This document shows positions 3,142-13,936 of a stretch of DNA of 64,000 nucleotides, piece by piece. The stretch is from Trypanosoma brucei (taxonomy: Eukaryota): the NCBI GenBank assembly GCA_000002445.1, contig CM000208.1, positions 3,360,001 through 3,424,000 of the forward strand, read 5' to 3'. Under the pieces are notes generated by a model, which saw only the letters and a list, made by a program, of their open reading frames with translations, had not been told where the DNA came from and made no database searches. Each line of letters opens with the position of its first letter. Within the stretch, counting starts at the first letter, position 1. The position numbers and the translations under genes were made by a program.

Positions 3142-4641
3142 TTAAGGAAGATAGATGAGGCGAGTTTGGTTCGGGTACCCCTTCACAGAGTGGTCGGCAT
3201 GCACGACAACCACCACGTCTCCAGTGCTGGCATATTTCTCCTTCTTCGCAAAATCCAAACCGAGTTTCACGCGCTTTTCCTTATCCTTGTCCTCACCACT
3301 CTTTGCGGCGTCGTAGAAAACACTCACGACGGAGCGCGTCACGTTGAGTTGACGGCACGTTTGCAGACGTGTGGTGACACAAATGATGGGGCAGTTCGGG
3401 CGGTACTTGCTGATGAGGCGAGCACTTCGGCCCGTGTTGCTTAGCACGAGCATTGCCTTGGCTTGTACCTCAAATGCAGAGGCGACGGCGCTGCTGCAAA
3501 CGGCCTCTTCGGGGCACATGGGGATTTTCTGCAGGTTCTTAATGCTGTTGAACATAACAGTATCGTGCGTTGCGCTCTGCGCCTCGACACAGATGCGAGC
3601 CATGTACTGTACCACTTCGTTGGGGTACTTCCCTTTGGCCGTTTCACCGGAAAGCATGACACAGTCGGCTCCGTTGAGAACAGCATTGGCAACATCGGAT
3701 ACTTCGGCACGTGTGGGGCGGGGGTTTGACGTCATGCTCTCGAGCATTTGCGTGGCACAGATGACAGGTTTGCCCACCACGTTGCACTTGCTGATGATGC
3801 ACATCTGCGCCACACACACCTTCTCGGCGGGGATCTCGACGCCAAGATCACCACGAGCAACCATAATGCCATTGCTCGCTTCAATGATGGAGTCAATGTT
3901 CTGCACACCCTGGTGGTTTTCAATCTTGGAAATGATAAGGATGTCTTTTCCCTTCTCACCGAGGGCGGCGCGCACCTCACGAACCTGCTCAGCCGTGCGG
4001 ATGAACGAGGCAAAAATCATATCAACACCTTGTGCCACACCGAACTCCAAGTCCTTGCGGTCCTTCTCGGAAACGGCGGGCAGATCCACCTCACAACCTG
4101 GGAGGTTGATACCCCTGCGGTCGGTCAGGCGGTGGTGATTGTTCACGTGGCACTTCAGCGTCCGATCGTCTTCCTTGCTCACCACGCGGAGAGTCATCAC
4201 ACCGTCGTCAACATAAATGGAACCGCCCACGGGCACTGCCTTCGTCAGTTGTGGGTAGTCGATATAGAACTTTTCCTTTGTGCCAACCTTCTCATAGGCG
4301 GGATCGGTAGTGACACACACGATGTCACCAGGGGCGAAGCTCACCTCACCATCCTTGAAGAGGCCTGTACGGATTTCAGGACCTTTCGTGTCCAGCGCAA
4401 TACCAATATGAAGGCCAAGTTCAGCAGCAGCTGCGCGAACGTTGTTTATCGTCGTCTGGTGGTATTCATGGGATCCATGGGAGAAGTTCATACGGGCAAC
4501 AGACATACCACTCTTCATTAGGTTTTTCAGGGCTTCAACGCTCTGTGTGCTGGGTCCGATGGTGCACACAATGCGGTTGGCACGGTGTTTGGCCACCGGC
4601 TCAAAAATGGAGAGCCCAATGTTGTGCTCTAGCTGCGACAT
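3142..4641 (-). CDS. PYK1: Pyruvate kinase
   Basis: 499 aa. The N-terminus MSQLEHNIGLSIFEPVAKHRANRIVCTIGPSTQSVEALKNLMKSGMSVARMNFSHGSHEYH matches trypanosomatid PYK. PK-family motifs are present (MVARGDLG, GETAKGKYP, the effector-site region). Full-length ORF. Confidence 0.95.
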   Translation of the reverse strand: MSQLEHNIGLSIFEPVAKHRANRIVCTIGPSTQSVEALKNLMKSGMSVARMNFSHGSHEYHQTTINNVRAAAAELGLHIGIALDTKGPEIRTGLFKDGEVSFAPGDIVCVTTDPAYEKVGTKEKFYIDYPQLTKAVPVGGSIYVDDGVMTLRVVSKEDDRTLKCHVNNHHRLTDRRGINLPGCEVDLPAVSEKDRKDLEFGVAQGVDMIFASFIRTAEQVREVRAALGEKGKDILIISKIENHQGVQNIDSIIEASNGIMVARGDLGVEIPAEKVCVAQMCIISKCNVVGKPVICATQMLESMTSNPRPTRAEVSDVANAVLNGADCVMLSGETAKGKYPNEVVQYMARICVEAQSATHDTVMFNSIKNLQKIPMCPEEAVCSSAVASAFEVQAKAMLVLSNTGRSARLISKYRPNCPIICVTTRLQTCRQLNVTRSVVSVFYDAAKSGEDKDKEKRVKLGLDFAKKEKYASTGDVVVVVHADHSVKGYPNQTRLIYLP

Positions 4642-5910: not shown

Positions 5911-7350
5911 TTACGCAAAATCCTCCCCCTCTCCCTCATTGGTTTCATCTTCTTTAGCGACTGCCTCTTCCTCACCTTCTTGCTCTTTCTTCTCCTCATC
6001 CTCCTCGTCATCGCTGGAGAGTTCTGGTTCGCCTGTTTTGATGTGACTGGAGTACTCCTTCAGTTTGGCACGGATATTTTCCATGATTCCACCAATGTCT
6101 TCCAGGAACCTCGGTGGCTGCTCGTCAACAAGCTTGAACAATTCCAACTTCTCTTCACTATGCTTGATGACTCGCGGTTTCGGCGCCGAATCCCTCTTTG
6201 CTTTATTGGCTTGTTGCTTCTGCTTCTTGCTGTCGCCTCCGTTCTGATGACTCATGCCATCGTTCAAGACCACGGCACCTTCTGGGGCAAACTCCGCTGG
6301 GTCAAAGTTTGCCGCTGCCTCCCTCCTGGCCCGCTCCTCATTCTCGCGTTGAACCATAATCTTTTGGTCCCTCAAATACTGTAGAAGGGTGTCGCATGCC
6401 GCGATTTCCACCTCGTATGGGTTCATGCGACGCAGCGCACGCTCACGCTTCTCCGCCAACTTGGGGGCATTCTTTCGTTCCAGGAACCTGCGGTGGCGTT
6501 CCTTGCGCACTTCCTCCATTTTGGCCATGTGCTTAGCGCGGGCTTCATCACACCACGACTTCCACACCTCCATTGCCTTCTGGAAGTCCTCAGAAAGTGC
6601 GTTCATTTCCTTGGTAATACTGGTGATCTTTGCGCTGATCTCATCACACTTTTTGAATACTTCCTGCCGATTCGCCCCAGTGCTCCTCATTTTGTCATCT
6701 TTCTCCATTTTGGTTGATCGTTGTCCCTTGTATTCTTCATTGAGACCCCGAATGCGCTCGTTAATTTCTTGGATCTCACGTTGCAACGTCGCCTCGCAGT
6801 GCTTTGCCTCCGCGATGGCCTCGGAAACAGGCTGCAGCTCCTGCAAGTACCGTTTAGCATCCTCAAGTTGGCCTATTTGTCGCATGATGCGCTTCTCGGC
6901 GGCGAGTCCACCGCCACTTGTCTCCATTTTTTTCGTCATGTACTCGATGGCCTCGTCGAACTCCTCCACGCTTTTAAAGCCGCCCAGGTCATCTGTCAGA
7001 GAGCGGAGTTTCTTCACGTACTCGTCGTGTTTCTTCCTTACTTCAATAATCTCCTCTGACTTTTTGGAGCGCATTTCTTGTTCAGCCTTCCGTTTGTCAT
7101 CAAGCTCCTTGAGCCTCTGTCGGATCTCGTCGCGCTCCTTGTCAGGCTCACTTTTTGGTCCCAACGAAGCACGTAGCTCCTTGATTTGGGCGATAAGAGC
7201 CCCTTTCTCCTGCGAAAGTGCTTTCATCTTGGTTCGGTGCTCCATTACATCTGGTCTCGGAGGCGCCCCCGGAGCTGTCATCCACCGCGGTTGAGGACGC
7301 CTTTCCGTCGGCGCGGGCGCAGCTTCAGGTGCCGTCTCTGTCTTGCTCAT
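5911..7350 (-). CDS. Conserved coiled-coil protein (479 aa), hypothetical
   Basis: Long minus-strand ORF rich in E/K/R/L heptads with an acidic C-terminal tail (DDEEDEEKKEQEGEEE). No catalytic motifs recognised. Confidence 0.6.
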   Translation of the reverse strand: MSKTETAPEAAPAPTERRPQPRWMTAPGAPPRPDVMEHRTKMKALSQEKGALIAQIKELRASLGPKSEPDKERDEIRQRLKELDDKRKAEQEMRSKKSEEIIEVRKKHDEYVKKLRSLTDDLGGFKSVEEFDEAIEYMTKKMETSGGGLAAEKRIMRQIGQLEDAKRYLQELQPVSEAIAEAKHCEATLQREIQEINERIRGLNEEYKGQRSTKMEKDDKMRSTGANRQEVFKKCDEISAKITSITKEMNALSEDFQKAMEVWKSWCDEARAKHMAKMEEVRKERHRRFLERKNAPKLAEKRERALRRMNPYEVEIAACDTLLQYLRDQKIMVQRENEERARREAAANFDPAEFAPEGAVVLNDGMSHQNGGDSKKQKQQANKAKRDSAPKPRVIKHSEEKLELFKLVDEQPPRFLEDIGGIMENIRAKLKEYSSHIKTGEPELSSDDEEDEEKKEQEGEEEAVAKEDETNEGEGEDFA

Positions 7351-8210
7351 TGCTGCTGATGCTTTTTGGCAGAACCTTTCCCCCTTGGTACACTAATCGT
7401 GCAAATTAATGAGGCAACTTCCTCAATCTAATTATATTATTCTTATTTTGTTCCTTTTTCCACTCTTACAACGTATTCCCTTATTGTTGTCAATTAATCG
7501 CCTCTCCAATGCAACTTTAGCCAACTCTCTGCCCCCTTTGAAATTCCTTGCTATTGTTGTCTAAACAGAGTTATTAGTTGACCAAGAGAAGAGGCACTCT
7601 GATTCGTGGGAGGTGAGCAAAAGCGCATACAGAGCAGAAAAAAAAAGGGAGACAATACCCCTAGAGGATGCCAAACACATGGCGCTATCGTCGGCGAGCT
7701 TTTGCGTTGCTGCGCCACGTATTGGCCCGCATAAATTCAAATGGTGGCAATAGGAGTTGTGCGAGTACACATGCGACTACCATAAACTTGATGACGCAGC
7801 CGGTGGAGTTTTCCTGCTTCCCCCTCTCCTCTTCCTTTGAGAATTCCCCTGAGTTGCCAAACCGATCCACTGGTGTGCACCTCCGGATGCGGAGCGGTGC
7901 AAAGCAGCCCAAACAAAAGACATGTGTACAGAAATAAAAGGGTAATGCCCACCCCCGCCTCGCCCCCACATTACATAAATCGGGAACATATTCTTTTCCT
8001 TCTTCTTCATGTACTCCAGCATGTAAATAAATGGATGTGCTTACGTATTCTTTCGCTGAGAGTGTGCTGCAAAGGGCATCTAAAGGGGCAGATGTGATTA
8101 TATCCGCTTCCTCAAACAAATTTTAGTGGAGGTGGCGGAAACATAACGAACATGTTCCGTCCCCTTCCACACCCCAGGAACAGCGTTCCCATCAAGTTCA
8201 CAATTCATAA

Positions 8211-8430
8211 GGTGAAAAATATTCCCCTTGCATTTTACCTTTGCTTTTAATCAGGCACCATAAATGTTATTTGGAACTCCATTTAGTATTATAATTCTTC
8301 CCTTTTCCTTCATGCAGATTAGTGTGGCACAAAATATTTGTACAGAAAAAGTCCAAAGATACCTCCAAACAATGGAATAACTAGTGGAACCCAGAAATAA
8401 TAATTTGCATGTGAAAACACCTTCCCACCA
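8211..8430 (-). pseudogene. Relic of an aquaglyceroporin 3' end (last 36 codons, stop and about 108 nt of 3'UTR)
   Basis: The 220 bp is about 97% identical to 9351..9570 (AQP3 3'UTR plus C-terminal coding). The reverse-complement of 8319..8428 reads [36 protein letters not shown]. Homology stops abruptly at 8430 and there is no upstream ORF. Confidence 0.8.
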
Positions 8431-9050
8431 AAGTGAATGGTCTCCGTGAGTGGGTAAGAAACTTCCTCTCAGGGTCCCTATCCATCGTGCTGACGAAAAT
8501 TACGAAAATAAACGAAACCTTCAATGTAATATTTACTGGTTAAACTGGCTGCCGTTTTCTCTTTTCCCACGCGAATTCGGAAGTCGCTCTCCACCTCCCT
8601 TTGTTTGTGTGGAGGAGCTCCAGGTATCAAACAAAGTAAAAATAAAGAAAGCTCATTAAAATCTATAATAACAATCAAATATTCCCCAATAGAATGCACC
8701 ACCACCTCATTTGTAAAACAGAAGTGAATCATCAAGTGCGAATTTGCCCCGGCATACTATCCCTCACCTCCCAACACAACAAAATCAGCGGTTAAAACAC
8801 ACATGCAAACAGCTGTGGGATGAAGAGAAGTAAAGTGCAACAACAAAGAGATGTACGACATGAGTGAAGTAAACCGAGATTCACCTTAACGTCTTCCCAA
8901 AATATGTATTTAAATGACGTTAGGGGTGCAACGAGGGATTATCCAAGTGGTTCAGCGCTATTCAGTGACAAATTTTATGTGTGTATTCTTCCATTGGTGC
9001 CCTGAGCGAACATAATCGGGGTGGCTCGAAAAAAAAAAACACATGAACAA

Positions 9051-9057
9051 GCGCGCG

Positions 9058-9094
<37 letters not shown>
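9051..9094. repeat. Compound microsatellite (GC)4(AC)8(AT)9
   Basis: Read directly: gcgcgcgc acacacacacacacac atatatatatatatatat. Confidence 0.9.
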
Positions 9095-9095
<1 letters not shown>

Positions 9096-9350
9096 AGAAA
9101 AAAGTAAACATGAGATTAGTGATGGGGAAAGACTTTCTTACGCTGCTGAAGGGAGCAACAGCACCTATGGATTGCGCCATCTGTTCACCTTATTTATCTC
9201 TAAAAATTAGTGTCCCCTTCGATCATTGTACTTAATACAATGAAACAAAACGGCAACCAGAAAGGCAGCTCATGCACTCAAAAACAGGAAAAGAATCGTT
9301 TTTTTTTAAACACGAATTAAAATAACGCTTTTTATATACTTAGTACATAC

Positions 9351-10650
9351 GGTGAAAAATATTCCCCTTGCGTTTTACCTTTGCTTTTAACCAGGCACCA
9401 TAAATGTTATTTGGAATTCCATTTAGTATTATAATTCTTCCTTTTTCCTTCATGCAGATTAGTGTGGCACAAAATATTTGTACAGAAAAAGTCCAAAGAT
9501 ACCTCCAAACAATGGAATAACTAGTGGAACCCAGAAATAATAATTTGCATGTGAAAACACCTTCCCACCATAAAGAAAAGAAGAGAAGACCCTGGGACCG
9601 AAGTCACGAGCCGGATTTATTGCGTAACCCGTTGAGTAACCGATGTTATTGCCAATGGCGAAGACAAGAGCACCAACTGCCAACGGCTCGTGTCCCTTGG
9701 CAGGAGAGTTATTGGGGTCGAAGATACCGCAGACACAGAACAATAGCATCGCCGTACATATAAACTCACCAAAGATACAAGAAAATAGACCATTTGAATC
9801 CCTTGGGTAGGTGCTGAACACACCTGCGGTCCCCTTTTCACCGAAGGCAATCAACTCACCACCACCATGCGCCTTCAGGAGATCAGCAAACACTCCGTAA
9901 GCGCAGGCAGCACCAAGAAAGGCACCGAGCATCTGCGCCGCGATGTAGCCGGGGACTTTTCTCCAAGGGAAATCACCGAAAACCGCATTGCCAACGGTGA
10001 CGGCGGGATTAAGGTGGCCGCTCGAGATACCCAATGAAACATACAGAGCCATCGTGACGGCAATGCCCCAACCAAGCGTAATGCTGAGGAACCCCAGTTT
10101 CCCATCAATGATAACCGTGGCGACCACACCATTACCCATAAAGAGCAGGACGAAGGTTCCCAGCAGCTCCCCCATGTAGTCGCGGTAATTTAGCCGCAGT
10201 TCCCGTGGTGCCCAAAAGTTGATGCCTCCCGGTACTTCCTCTTGAGCCTCCGCCACCTCATGTTTCCGGTTGCTACTGTCGTCGTTTCCCTGAACACGGA
10301 CCTCCACTGTTCCATCCTTATTAACCGCTTGTAGCTCCATGGGATACGCCACATTGTCTGGTTGGCTCTGCATTCTGATTTTCTGGAGCTTTTTTTTCTT
10401 GTTGCTCGAATTCAATTTTTAAATAATGTCTGATGTGCTGAAGGCGCTACCTAACAATTGTTTTTGTTTCCTCCTACACTGTTACACAAATAGTCAGCAG
10501 CGGGCGATAGAATAGGGGGAACGGGGTTTATAAGGTAGCAAAGCACCTTGCGTGACGCAAGAATGAATGTTCGGAAGTGAGGAAAGTAATATCGACAGCA
10601 TTAACAAGGAATTCCCACATGCGCATGCGTGTGCGTAGAGGAGTGAAACG
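9351..10650. repeat. Tandem duplication unit 1 (AQP3 gene with 3'UTR and 235-bp 5' flank)
   Basis: Paralogous to 11120..12446. The 5' flank 10416..10650 is identical to 12212..12446, and the first about 130 nt of CDS are identical. The 3'UTRs are about 80% identical. Confidence 0.85.
9459..10415 (-). CDS. AQP3: Aquaglyceroporin 3 (canonical NPA/NPA plus Arg filter)
   Basis: 318 aa MIP-family protein. First motif [11 protein letters not shown], second motif [11 protein letters not shown] (NPA followed by the conserved Arg). Six predicted TM segments. The N-terminal 44 aa are identical to the paralogue downstream. Confidence 0.9.
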
Positions 10651-11119
10651 AAGAGCAATATCGCTAATCGTAATTTGAATGCCTCTCCGAGGCACATCGT
10701 TGCGTGGTAACGTAAACAAATGGGATGGGGAGAGGAAAGTGAAAGAGGGTGGAAGATGTGGCAACCTACTAAGGTTCCGTCATGTATTCCCTTCCTCCAC
10801 ATTATTATTGTTATATATTTCTACCCGCTGAATAAAAATAGACAAGTGATAAAAATAAGGGATGATGAAAAGACAAACACAGCATTTACCTCTACAGGGG
10901 CACCGCACCCTCTCGGTTAAACCGCTATAAACTCCTTACAACACATCCTTATTGTTTGATCCCATTCTCTTTCTTTTATGCCCCTTAGGTTAAATTATAA
11001 TGTGACATAACAGAGCAGTTTGCCTTCGCCTTTGGAGAAGGCAAAAACTTCAACGCTCACCGTTTCACCCGCATTCTTCGGGAGAAACAAAACCTCTCTG
11101 TTATATTCTTAACTCATAT

Positions 11120-12446
11120 GGTGAAAAATGATCCCTTCGTTTTATTTTTCATCTTTCCTTTTAGCTAGGCACCATCAATGTTATTTGGAATTCCACTAAC
11201 CGTCAATACCCTTCGCCCTACCCTGGCCGATTAGTGTGGAAGAAAATATTTGTACAGAAAAAGTCCAAGGATAGCTCCAAAGAATGGAACAACTAGTGGA
11301 ACCCAGAAATAATAATTTGCATGTGAAAAAACTTCCCCCCCGAGAAGGATCGCACCGAAGACCCTGGGACCGAAATCAAGTGAGGGATTCATCGCAAGGG
11401 GAGACGCTAAGCCGAAGTTGTTGACCATGACGAAGACAAGAGCACCAATAGCTACCGTTTCGTACCCCTTGGCAGGAGAGTTATTGGGGTCAAAGATACC
11501 GCAGACACAGAGCAGTAGCACTGCGGTGGAAATGAGTTCAGCAAAAATTGGATAAAATATACCATTTCCTTCCGCGGGGTACATGGCAAACACCCACGCA
11601 ATCCCCTTTTCACCGAAGGCAATCAACTCACCACCACCATGCGCCTTCAGGAGATCAGCAAACACTCCGTAAGCGCAGGCAGCACCAAGGAAAGTGCCGA
11701 GCATCTGCGCCGCGATGTAGCCGGGGACTTTTCTCCAAGGGAAATCACCGAAAACCGCATTGCCAACGGTGACGGCAGAGTTGAGATGGCCACCGGAGAT
11801 GCCCAGTGAAACATACAGAGCCATCGTGACAGCCACACCAATACCAATCGTAAGACCGAGAAGCCCAAAATCTGGAACAAGTAGTGAGGTGATAACCGCG
11901 CCCTTAGCGATATATATGAGGACGAAGTTTCCCAGAAATTCAGCCACGTAGTCGCGGTAATTTAGCCGCAGTTCCCGTGGTGCCCAAAAGTTGATGCCTC
12001 CCACGGGTTTCTCTTGAGCCTCCGCCACCTCATGTTTTTGTACATCTGCATCCCACCGCTCATTGCTACTGTTGTCAACGTTTCCCTGAACACGGACCTC
12101 CACTGTTCCATCCTTATTAACCGCTTGTAGCTCCATGGGATACGCCACATTGTCTGGTTGGCTCTGCATTCTGATTTTCTGGAGCTTTTTTTTCTTGTTG
12201 CTCGAATTCAATTTTTAAATAATGTCTGATGTGCTGAAGGCGCTACCTAACAATTGTTTTTGTTTCCTCCTACACTGTTACACAAATAGTCAGCAGCGGG
12301 CGATAGAATAGGGGGAACGGGGTTTATAAGGTAGCAAAGCACCTTGCGTGACGCAAGAATGAATGTTCGGAAGTGAGGAAAGTAATATCGACAGCATTAA
12401 CAAGGAATTCCCACATGCGCATGCGTGTGCGTAGAGGAGTGAAACG
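11120..12446. repeat. Tandem duplication unit 2 (AQP2 gene with flanks)
   Basis: See unit 1. The offset is 1769-1796 bp; the 27-bp difference comes from 24 extra coding nt in AQP2. Confidence 0.85.
11231..12211 (-). CDS. AQP2: Aquaglyceroporin 2 (atypical NSA/NPS motifs, Arg replaced by Leu)
   Basis: 326 aa MIP-family protein. First motif [11 protein letters not shown] (NSA, at about 11774-11782). Second motif [11 protein letters not shown] (NPS plus Leu, at about 11378-11389). These are the hallmark residues of TbAQP2, the pentamidine/melarsoprol uptake channel. Confidence 0.9.
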
Positions 12447-12799
12447 GAAGGAAGAAAGAAAACAACAAGTGGAGTTTCAGCCTTCTTTTTCTCGATTATT
12501 CTGATCTGATTTCCCCCTTTCCACTATGATGCTTGTATATGATCCCTCCTTGGAGAGCGGTGCAATGCAAAAGGTTATACTGACAGGGTCAAGATGATGC
12601 CGACAAAAAAACTAGGAGGGTGAACTGTGCTCAGGAGGACCATCAAAACCCTCTACCAGCTGTTGCCATGCACCACGCGGTAACCGCCTTACCTCCGCAC
12701 TTCTTCCCATAGTCCTCATTTCCCCTTCTCCTCCCACCCATCCAACCGACCTCCCGTTGTAAATATCTCTCCACCATATCTTGTTCAAACAAGTTGTCG

Positions 12800-13936
12800 T
12801 CAGTGAACCCGCTGATTTTGGTTTTCGTATTCGCTGAGAGGTGTTTTAAACCATGGTTGGCAAAACTCATTGCCTTCACGGAGGATAAACACTTCCGAAT
12901 TGCCAGTTGTAACCACCAGCATGCCTCCAGTGGGCGACCACGAGAGACGCCATACCGGCTCATCGAAGAGGACGCAACTGCGCTCCCAACCACCGCTCAC
13001 CTCTCCCATGGCATCCCTTCCCCCTTCGCCGCTCCGCAACCCCCGGTCATCAATACAAGTCGTGAGGTGACTCCACTGTTTGCGGTGAATGATGACACTC
13101 CTGTCCTGTCCGCAACTAGCAATAACTGCGTATCGCGTCGCAGCGGAAAGAGGTTCGAAAGCAACGTCTCGCACCCAGTCTGTGTGACCTTCGAGCAACT
13201 CCAGGAAGTGATAGGGATGGGCCCCAGCAGCGCCGCCTTCGGGTAAGTACCACAAACGAACTCGTGAGTCACATCCACCAGAGACCAAAAGCCTCCCGTT
13301 ACCCAACTGTGGACAAGTGGGCGCAAATGATACGCATGTGGCTCCCATGGCATGTGCGATGTTGTTGCTGTTGTTACTCAGTTTAACGCTCTCACGCCAG
13401 GCACCCTCTTCATATGTTGTTACTGCCACGGTGCCATCACTACTCGCCGTCGCAAGCATGGGAGATTCGGGTGCCCACTGTACGGCATTGACGCTACCCT
13501 GGTGAATGTCAATCACATGCACTGGTCGCCATTGGCGTGTGGGTTGCGACACTTCTTTCCATACAATTGCCTTGTGATCGTAGCCAGCCGATGCCAAGAC
13601 AGTGCCAAAGCGCGGGTGTGCCCAACTCACCATCCACACGGGACCCTCATGACCTATGAGGGTCGCAACTCGCTGCATCTGACCGTCTCGGACCGTGTGA
13701 ATGCCTATAGTGCGGTCGGAGCTTGCGGTCGCGAGTTGCTGTCCGTAGTAGTCGAATTGCGTGTCGTGGATTATGTCCTGATGTTCCTGAGGTTGCTGCT
13801 GCTGGAATTGTTGGGGCTGCTGTGGTTGTCTCTGTTGATGCATATCATGGGGTGCCACTGGTGCTGCCTGGCCGTAGCCACCAATAGTGCGGTTTTGCGA
13901 CGGGTATCTAGTTGAATGAAGCATTATTGGTATCAA
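12800..13936 (-). CDS. SEC13: Sec13-like WD40 protein (COPII / nuclear pore)
   Basis: HDTQFDYYGQQLATASSDRTIGIH...GHEGPVWMVSWAHPRFGTVLASAGYDHKAIVWKE...VNAVQWAP aligns closely with Sec13 ([24 protein letters not shown]...[32 protein letters not shown]). It carries an additional Q-rich N-terminal extension. Confidence 0.75.
   Translation of the reverse strand: MIPIMLHSTRYPSQNRTIGGYGQAAPVAPHDMHQQRQPQQPQQFQQQQPQEHQDIIHDTQFDYYGQQLATASSDRTIGIHTVRDGQMQRVATLIGHEGPVWMVSWAHPRFGTVLASAGYDHKAIVWKEVSQPTRQWRPVHVIDIHQGSVNAVQWAPESPMLATASSDGTVAVTTYEEGAWRESVKLSNNSNNIAHAMGATCVSFAPTCPQLGNGRLLVSGGCDSRVRLWYLPEGGAAGAHPYHFLELLEGHTDWVRDVAFEPLSAATRYAVIASCGQDRSVIIHRKQWSHLTTCIDDRGLRSGEGGRDAMGEVSGGWERSCVLFDEPVWRLSWSPTGGMLVVTTGNSEVFILREGNEFCQPWFKTPLSEYENQNQRVH

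Follow-up and report, generated by a model that had tools for sequence, protein, structure and literature searches.

Gene content and repeat structure of the AQP2/AQP3 locus

The window, meaning the whole 64,000-nt stretch of Trypanosoma brucei DNA that was analysed, carries the aquaglyceroporin genes AQP2 and AQP3 on its minus strand. The nearest database proteins to the two products are aquaglyceroporins of T. brucei, T. evansi and T. b. gambiense, together with AQP2/3 chimeras, and the window AQP2 product is identical to the AQP2 of T. b. gambiense DAL972 and of assembly GCA_003543875.1. In the literature, AQP2 is Tb927.10.14170 and AQP3 is Tb927.10.14160. The features of the locus are listed below, where R is the 3' segment of AQP3 that recurs downstream of the gene and the downstream copy of R is called the relic.

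3142-4641, minus strand: pyruvate kinase gene
5911-7350, minus strand: gene of 479 aa, the next gene after the relic
7351-8205, minus strand: sequence D, unique, between the relic and the 479-aa gene
8206-8430, minus strand: the relic (R-frag), 225 nt, matching the AQP3 3' end by blastn
8206-8318, minus strand: 3'UTR part of the relic, the first 113 nt
8319-8321, minus strand: TAA stop codon of the relic
8322-8430, minus strand: coding part of the relic, 109 nt (36 codons plus 1 nt)
8431-9345, minus strand: spacer S, unique, 915 nt, separating the two R copies
9332-10650, minus strand: AQP3 repeat unit, 83.7% identical to the AQP2 unit at 11101-12446
9346-9570, minus strand: parent segment (R-AQP3) in the intact AQP3 gene, running from the final 109 coding nt through the stop codon into the 3'UTR for 113 nt
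9459-10373, minus strand: coding sequence of AQP3 including the stop codon, 304 aa, with its ATG at 10373
10651-11100: spacer J, unique, 450 nt, between AQP2 and AQP3
11111-11340, minus strand: AQP2 counterpart of R, with 79.8% identity to the relic
11231-12169, minus strand: AQP2 coding sequence, 312 aa
12800-13924, minus strand: WD40/SEC13-like gene

The homology between the AQP2 and AQP3 units spans from ~277 nt upstream of the ATG to ~127 nt beyond the stop codon. The 479-aa gene is probably ERBP1 (Tb927.10.14150), judged from gene numbering and size only; ERBP1 is described in the literature as a 55-kDa protein. The polypyrimidine tract of this gene lies within D, at ~7600-7650. Exact-protein look-ups with AQP3 and with an 84-aa ORF in S gave no match, nor did Pfam searches with the small ORFs of S, D and J. 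An ORF of 102 aa in the AQP2-AQP3 interval (10494-10802, minus strand), to which the DAL972 record gives gene status, is without a Pfam match. It shares sequence with the polypyrimidine tracts 5' of AQP3 and is probably no real gene. Within S, on the minus strand at ~9025-9100, lies a compound (TA)n(TG)n(CG)n microsatellite, with a T-run and an AG after it. The microsatellite varies in length between the window and DAL972, and contigs of T. equiperdum OVI stop there. The T-run and AG resemble an acceptor signal for trans-splicing; no ORF is recognisable downstream of it, and the relic might sit in an orphan transcript.

An orphan copy of the AQP3 3' end

A first-pass annotation of this DNA had described an orphan AQP3 3' end consisting of 36 codons, a stop codon and 3'UTR, placed at 8211-8430 (220 bp), about 97% identical to the AQP3 3' terminus and ending abruptly at 8430. 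When 7900-8900 was compared with the whole window by blastn, 8206-8430 aligned ungapped with 9346-9570, with 220 of 225 positions identical (97.8%, five mismatches, E=2e-108). This alignment and the minus-strand translation bear out the description in kind, in degree of identity and in the end at 8430; the start needs correction, because the true start is 8206 and the segment is 225 nt long. Identity collapses right outside both edges (8430/8431 and 8206/8205). All five mismatches (8210, 8232, 8251, 8277 and 8302) lie in the UTR part, an arrangement with P ~0.03 under random placement, and the two copies form a perfect 128-nt repeat at 8303-8430 and 9443-9570. Over its last 80 nt, the AQP3 coding sequence is matched by the relic at 80/80 positions, and the 3'UTR over its first 80 nt at 77/80. 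The gap between the AQP3 stop codon and the relic is 1028 nt, and the two R copies are offset by 1140 nt.

Over the R segment, AQP2 and AQP3 agree at 98 of 109 coding positions and 83 of 121 UTR positions, so the relic is far nearer to AQP3 than AQP2 is, as had been claimed from inspection. The blastn comparison with the two 3' ends that had been suggested as a check gave 97.8% identity for AQP3 and 79.8% for AQP2; the relic sequence is neither low-complexity nor, within the 64-kb window, a dispersed repeat, blastn having found no copies there beyond the AQP genes. AQP1 (L003 3206-3967) matches window 9458-10222 at 75%, starting ~150 nt into the AQP3 coding sequence and stopping exactly at the stop codon. 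At the AQP1 locus, nothing equivalent to the N-terminal coding part or to either UTR of the AQP2/AQP3 unit was detected. AQP1 was rejected as a source of the relic's UTR part or of the unit boundary because its homology with AQP3 ends at the stop codon. Separately, a 29-nt 3'UTR block, TGGAATTCCAAATAACATT(T/G)ATGGTGCCT, occurs on the minus strand at 9393-9421, 8253-8281 and 11167-11195. It is near-invariant in AQP2, AQP3 and the relic, while AQP2 and AQP3 have diverged by ~31% over the surrounding UTR, and it may be a regulatory element.

The relic is a non-coding gene fragment

On the minus strand, the relic reads as 36 AQP3 codons followed by the stop codon. The frame has in-frame stops 16 and 19 codons upstream and contains no ATG, so the relic is unable to code for a protein. 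Searches by tblastn with AQP2 and AQP3 found no other AQP-like coding sequence in 7351-9458, in agreement with the earlier claim that the fragment has no upstream coding sequence; a weak match at ~7714-7806 (E=0.2) was rejected as chance hydrophobic similarity. The 36 residues match only positions 191-222 of the 222 positions of the Pfam MIP profile (PF00230), scoring 17 bits against a cut-off of 25. A functional MIP/aquaglyceroporin gene, with six helices and two NPA-type motifs, is ruled out, since only the end of the profile is matched, and below threshold. The homology of the relic includes non-coding flank, the start and the rest of the gene are absent, and the fragment lies at the orthologous position in related genomes. 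The relic is a non-coding, 5'-truncated stub of AQP3 type, belonging to the class of non-processed pseudogene fragments, and forms one arm of a 225-nt direct repeat with the structure R-S-R.

Conservation and relative age of the relic

The window was compared with T. b. gambiense DAL972 (L002), GCA_003543875.1 (L008, a chromosome-level assembly) and T. equiperdum OVI (L001 and L005); two Logan contigs with SEC13 were too short to reach the AQP locus. The relic is present in all four genomes examined, in OVI as pieces. DAL972 is collinear with the window and has the R-S-R layout too, with R copies at L002 6806-7028 and 7939-8163, the latter being the relic. GCA_003543875.1 is 99.5% identical to the window, with R copies at L008 7603-7827 and 8743-8967, again offset by 1140 nt. 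The cross-strain comparison proposed by the first-pass annotation thus recovered the relic in both, and its pieces in OVI. The same annotation took the fragment to mark a structurally unstable locus. The comparison lends this no support: the window, DAL972 and GCA_003543875.1 share the same place, the same breakpoints and the same four copy-specific differences, and the relic offers no sign of instability today.

The situation in T. equiperdum OVI is harder to read. The OVI short-read assembly is broken at the R repeat, and its AQP3 contig (L005) ends 29 nt past the AQP3 stop codon. Scaffold L001 (CZPT02000656, positions 1-1128) has the order S (3' part), R, S (5' part), N10, R tail and D, and the middle R is a hybrid with the relic 5' junction, AQP3-type UTR states and a 3-nt deletion. 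This layout is ambiguous, as it could come from an assembler going astray in the 128-nt perfect repeat or from a genuine unequal crossover between the R copies that added an R+S unit of 1140 nt. A misassembly is probable; GCA_003543875.1 shows plain R-S-R, unlike the OVI scaffold. Assemblers can create or shuffle repeats of such a size, as the OVI scaffold illustrates, and the relic itself could in principle be an assembly artefact, a chance similarity or a generic dispersed repeat. On the 64 kb and the assemblies compared, this explanation is highly improbable, since the relic recurs with its copy-specific differences in three other independently deposited assemblies, the E value is far below that of a chance match, and only AQP genes match in 64 kb. 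In the OVI AQP3 contig (L005 ~10675, equivalent to window 9563), the sequence is GGGGAGG instead of the GGGAAGG of the window and the relic. It encodes GGEVF, as in AQP2, and not GGKVF, and represents a small AQP2-type patch or a polymorphism at the 3' end.

The copy-specific differences, at R positions 129, 180, 199 and 221, are common to all three complete loci, which indicates that the R copies diverged before these lineages separated. At these positions the relic has G, A, T and T, and AQP3 has A, G, C and G. The two R copies differ at 4-5 of 225 sites, as compared with five substitutions between the window and DAL972 in the 2108-nt region from AQP3 to the next gene; hence, the duplication, or the last full homogenisation, would predate strain divergence. 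Given that the AQP2 and AQP3 UTRs agree at only 83/121 positions, the relic/AQP3 split would be much younger than the AQP2/AQP3 split. These small counts suggest a relative age for the relic that is greater than that of strain divergence and less than that of the AQP2/AQP3 duplication, and the relic appears to be old and fixed. Its retention across strains is uninformative about selection because the whole 2.1-kb intergenic region is near-identical (five substitutions), and the relic is presumably neutral, or inert.

Probable exchange between the relic and AQP3

Evidence for gene conversion between the relic and AQP3 comes from one site at which the two copies co-vary. R position 150 is T in both window copies and A in both copies of DAL972 and of GCA_003543875.1, with T in AQP2. 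With five substitutions observed, the chance that the same change strikes homologous sites of both copies is ~2e-4. At R position 154, all AQP3-type copies have G except the window AQP3. The simplest explanation that these sites point to is short-tract exchange between the relic and the AQP3 3'UTR, drawn from one site, possibly two, and perhaps reflecting a single event.

Silent VSG pseudogene fragments serve as donors in segmental gene conversion. By analogy, the relic would be a non-expressed fragment able to donate to an expressed paralogue. Unlike the VSG donors, it is a single fragment, the exchange is seen at one or two sites, and there is no sign of a selected donor role. A bolder reading makes the relic an active recombination partner, a silent cassette that exchanges with the 3' end of AQP3 and possibly of AQP2. 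Pairing between the R copies would then yield 1140-nt R+S copy-number variants, which OVI may show, and some 3'-end chimeras with breakpoints after nt 828 (e.g. the AQP2/3(880) type), or reversions, could involve the relic and not AQP3. This reading is considered unlikely.

The relic and the AQP3 mosaic of DAL972

In DAL972, the AQP3 gene (unit at L002 5724-7042, equivalent to window 9332-10650) is a mosaic of AQP3-type and AQP2-type tracts, the latter corresponding to window 10005-10175, 9810-9824 and 9468-9654. The last ~190 coding nt are AQP2-type, and the sequence is AQP3-type again exactly from the stop codon. This mosaic fits a published remark that DAL972 and TREU927 differ in AQP3. The DAL972 relic retains an AQP3-type tail (108/109), which is the sole AQP3-type C-terminal coding sequence left in that locus. 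This shows the AQP3-type tail to be ancestral in the gambiense lineage.

These observations bear on a remark by Graf et al. 2013, according to whom the 126 bases contributed by AQP3 to the AQP2/3(814) chimera were not to be found in the genome of DAL972. The DAL972 relic holds the last 112 of those 126 bases, stop codon included, with one mismatch. Nevertheless, the relic was rejected as the donor for this chimera: nt 814-827 are AQP3-specific and are missing from the relic, and the published PCR keeps the primer site at 9273-9294, within S.

In an alternative reading, the relic is a selected 3'UTR module. It could provide a transcript arising from the polypyrimidine/AG sequence at ~9027 with a signal for RNA processing or regulation, or serve as a protected donor that restores an AQP3-type 3' end. 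The relic is kept in all four genomes, the 29-nt UTR block is near-invariant amid ~31% divergence, the only AQP3-type C-terminal coding sequence of DAL972 resides in the relic, and exchange with AQP3 is evidenced. While these observations are consistent with a functional element, the near-identity of the 2.1-kb intergenic region between strains deprives the retention of its weight, and an Rfam scan of 7000-12800 found no family, only two sub-threshold chance matches. The consensus fold of the three UTRs is weak (-7.6 kcal/mol) with negligible compensatory support (2/21 pairs among three sequences), and the relic has no ORF. A selected function is therefore regarded as distinctly improbable.

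Origin of the relic

The edges of the relic differ in their relationship to the array. At its distal edge, 8206 (9346 in AQP3), the relic stops 14 nt short of the edge of the AQP2/AQP3 unit (9332/11101), or within about 14-17 nt of it, so the relic shares the array's repeat-unit boundary to 14 nt; a coincidence this close has a chance of roughly a few percent. The proximal edge falls inside the coding region. Because the distal edge coincides with the unit edge, an origin from a longer unit is favoured. According to this model, a longer AQP3-type unit would have lost its 5' part, or had it replaced, through a non-homologous event, leaving a stub. In an equivalent version, the relic would be the remnant of an older unit that was later homogenised by AQP3, with conversion bounded by pre-existing homology. 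The relic would have stayed AQP3-like through a split, or a last full homogenisation, long after the AQP2/AQP3 split, together with continuing short-tract conversion. Taken as a whole, the account of an inert, 5'-truncated relic of the AQP3 lineage, fixed in Trypanozoon before the sampled T. brucei-group genomes diverged, is considered probable.

Several observations complicate the idea of a once-complete third unit. The offset of 1140 nt differs from the ~1770-1796 nt between AQP2 and AQP3, with no homologous spacer, and no trace of upstream unit sequence (5' flank or 5' coding sequence) lies beside the relic. S (915 nt) is unlike J (450 nt) or any upstream unit sequence, and no simple three-unit array is visible, so a truncated third unit would need at least two events. 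As for an older unit, the relic carries no older signature than AQP3, and derived states at the diagnostic sites are split about evenly between the copies. Local alignments of S with J, of S with D, and with the region upstream of AQP2 all scored within shuffled controls. Given that S, J and D have no mutual similarity, a non-homologous breakpoint inside the gene is required. The first-pass annotation had proposed that an array member was lost by unequal crossover or, alternatively, that a duplication junction ran through the gene. Loss by unequal crossover is not supported, since homologous crossover gives whole-unit loss or chimeras, not a 3' stub beside unique DNA of 915 nt; on its own, such a crossover is unable to generate the structure of the relic.

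A direct partial duplication would avoid a third gene altogether. In this scenario, only 225 nt were ever copied, for example because a double-strand break at S/D was repaired from the AQP3 3' end (templated insertion together with microhomology-mediated joining) or by a replication template switch. One event is enough, both edges are sharp with unique flanks on each side, there is no upstream AQP trace, and, with branches of similar length, the relic and AQP3 have the look of sister copies. The scenario leaves the distal edge, 14-17 nt from the unit boundary, unexplained, and the junctions show no microhomology that can be read with clarity. Direct duplication is a serious but tentative alternative, and as between it and truncation of a longer unit, the truncated unit is the somewhat more probable.

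A 5'-truncated fragment with a common 3' end is also the classic signature of a processed retrocopy, here of the AQP3 mRNA and made by ingi-type machinery. In that case, the distal edge common to both copies would mark the poly(A) site, and it does coincide with the end of the conserved AQP2/AQP3 UTR. However, the sequence after 8206 is AATTGTGAACTTG, with no A-run, any target-site duplication is limited to a 4-nt flank match, and spliced-leader sequence is absent throughout the window. Moreover, relic and parent share a strand and are 1 kb apart, and the AQP2/AQP3 homology extends ~14 nt past the relic edge. A retrocopy is accordingly very improbable, and truncation of a longer AQP3-type unit remains the preferred origin.

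Related systems and practical implications

The recombinants already described at this locus (AQP2/3(814), AQP2/3(880), AQP2/3(678-880) and the DAL972 AQP3 mosaic) resemble the relic in locus, in sequences and in process, namely recombination or conversion between adjoining AQP segments, the relic giving signs of exchange of this kind with AQP3. They differ in that the chimeras are complete, expressed genes from homologous exchange, whereas the relic is a 225-nt non-coding stub with non-homologous junctions. Jackson 2007 (PMC1855330) and Jackson et al. 2010 (PMC2854126) described T. brucei tandem arrays with partial gene conversion and subspecies-specific mosaics, a pattern matched by the co-varying site of the relic and by the DAL972 AQP3 mosaic. 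Those surveys treat annotated gene copies and their UTRs, while the relic is an orphan 3' fragment, and text searches of both papers under "aquaporin" and "aquaglyceroporin" turned up neither the AQP array nor such a fragment. A report on FRDg/FRDm2 (PMC8065229) describes direct-repeat-mediated deletion between neighbouring paralogues. R-S-R likewise consists of two direct repeats that are a substrate for homologous deletion or amplification; unlike the case it presents, no allele with deletion or amplification of S has been demonstrated at the AQP locus, the OVI scaffold being ambiguous. Among the papers searched, namely AQP reviews, genotyping studies of the locus, surveys of tandem arrays and the DAL972 genome paper, none was found to describe the relic, and the sequence itself is in public reference genomes.

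The relic is an ordinary gene relic at a well-studied locus, with some practical and historical value. AQP2/AQP3 is the locus of melarsoprol-pentamidine cross-resistance and is routinely genotyped, edited and tagged. The first-pass annotation had warned that the relic, as a third homology target, could confuse both read-mapping and PCR genotyping. The warning holds for mapping: short reads within 8303-8430 or 9443-9570 are ambiguous and map to two places, and short-read assemblies can break or mis-join at the 128-nt perfect repeat, as the contig breaks and odd join in OVI illustrate. It is not borne out for PCR. Published AQP2/AQP3 locus primers match perfectly at 12466-12487 and 9273-9294 and define a 3.2-kb amplicon (12487 to 9273), so the standard locus PCR excludes the relic. 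C-terminal tagging arms or Cas9 guides designed for the 3' end of AQP3 could act on the relic as well, and four diagnostic UTR sites distinguish it from AQP3.
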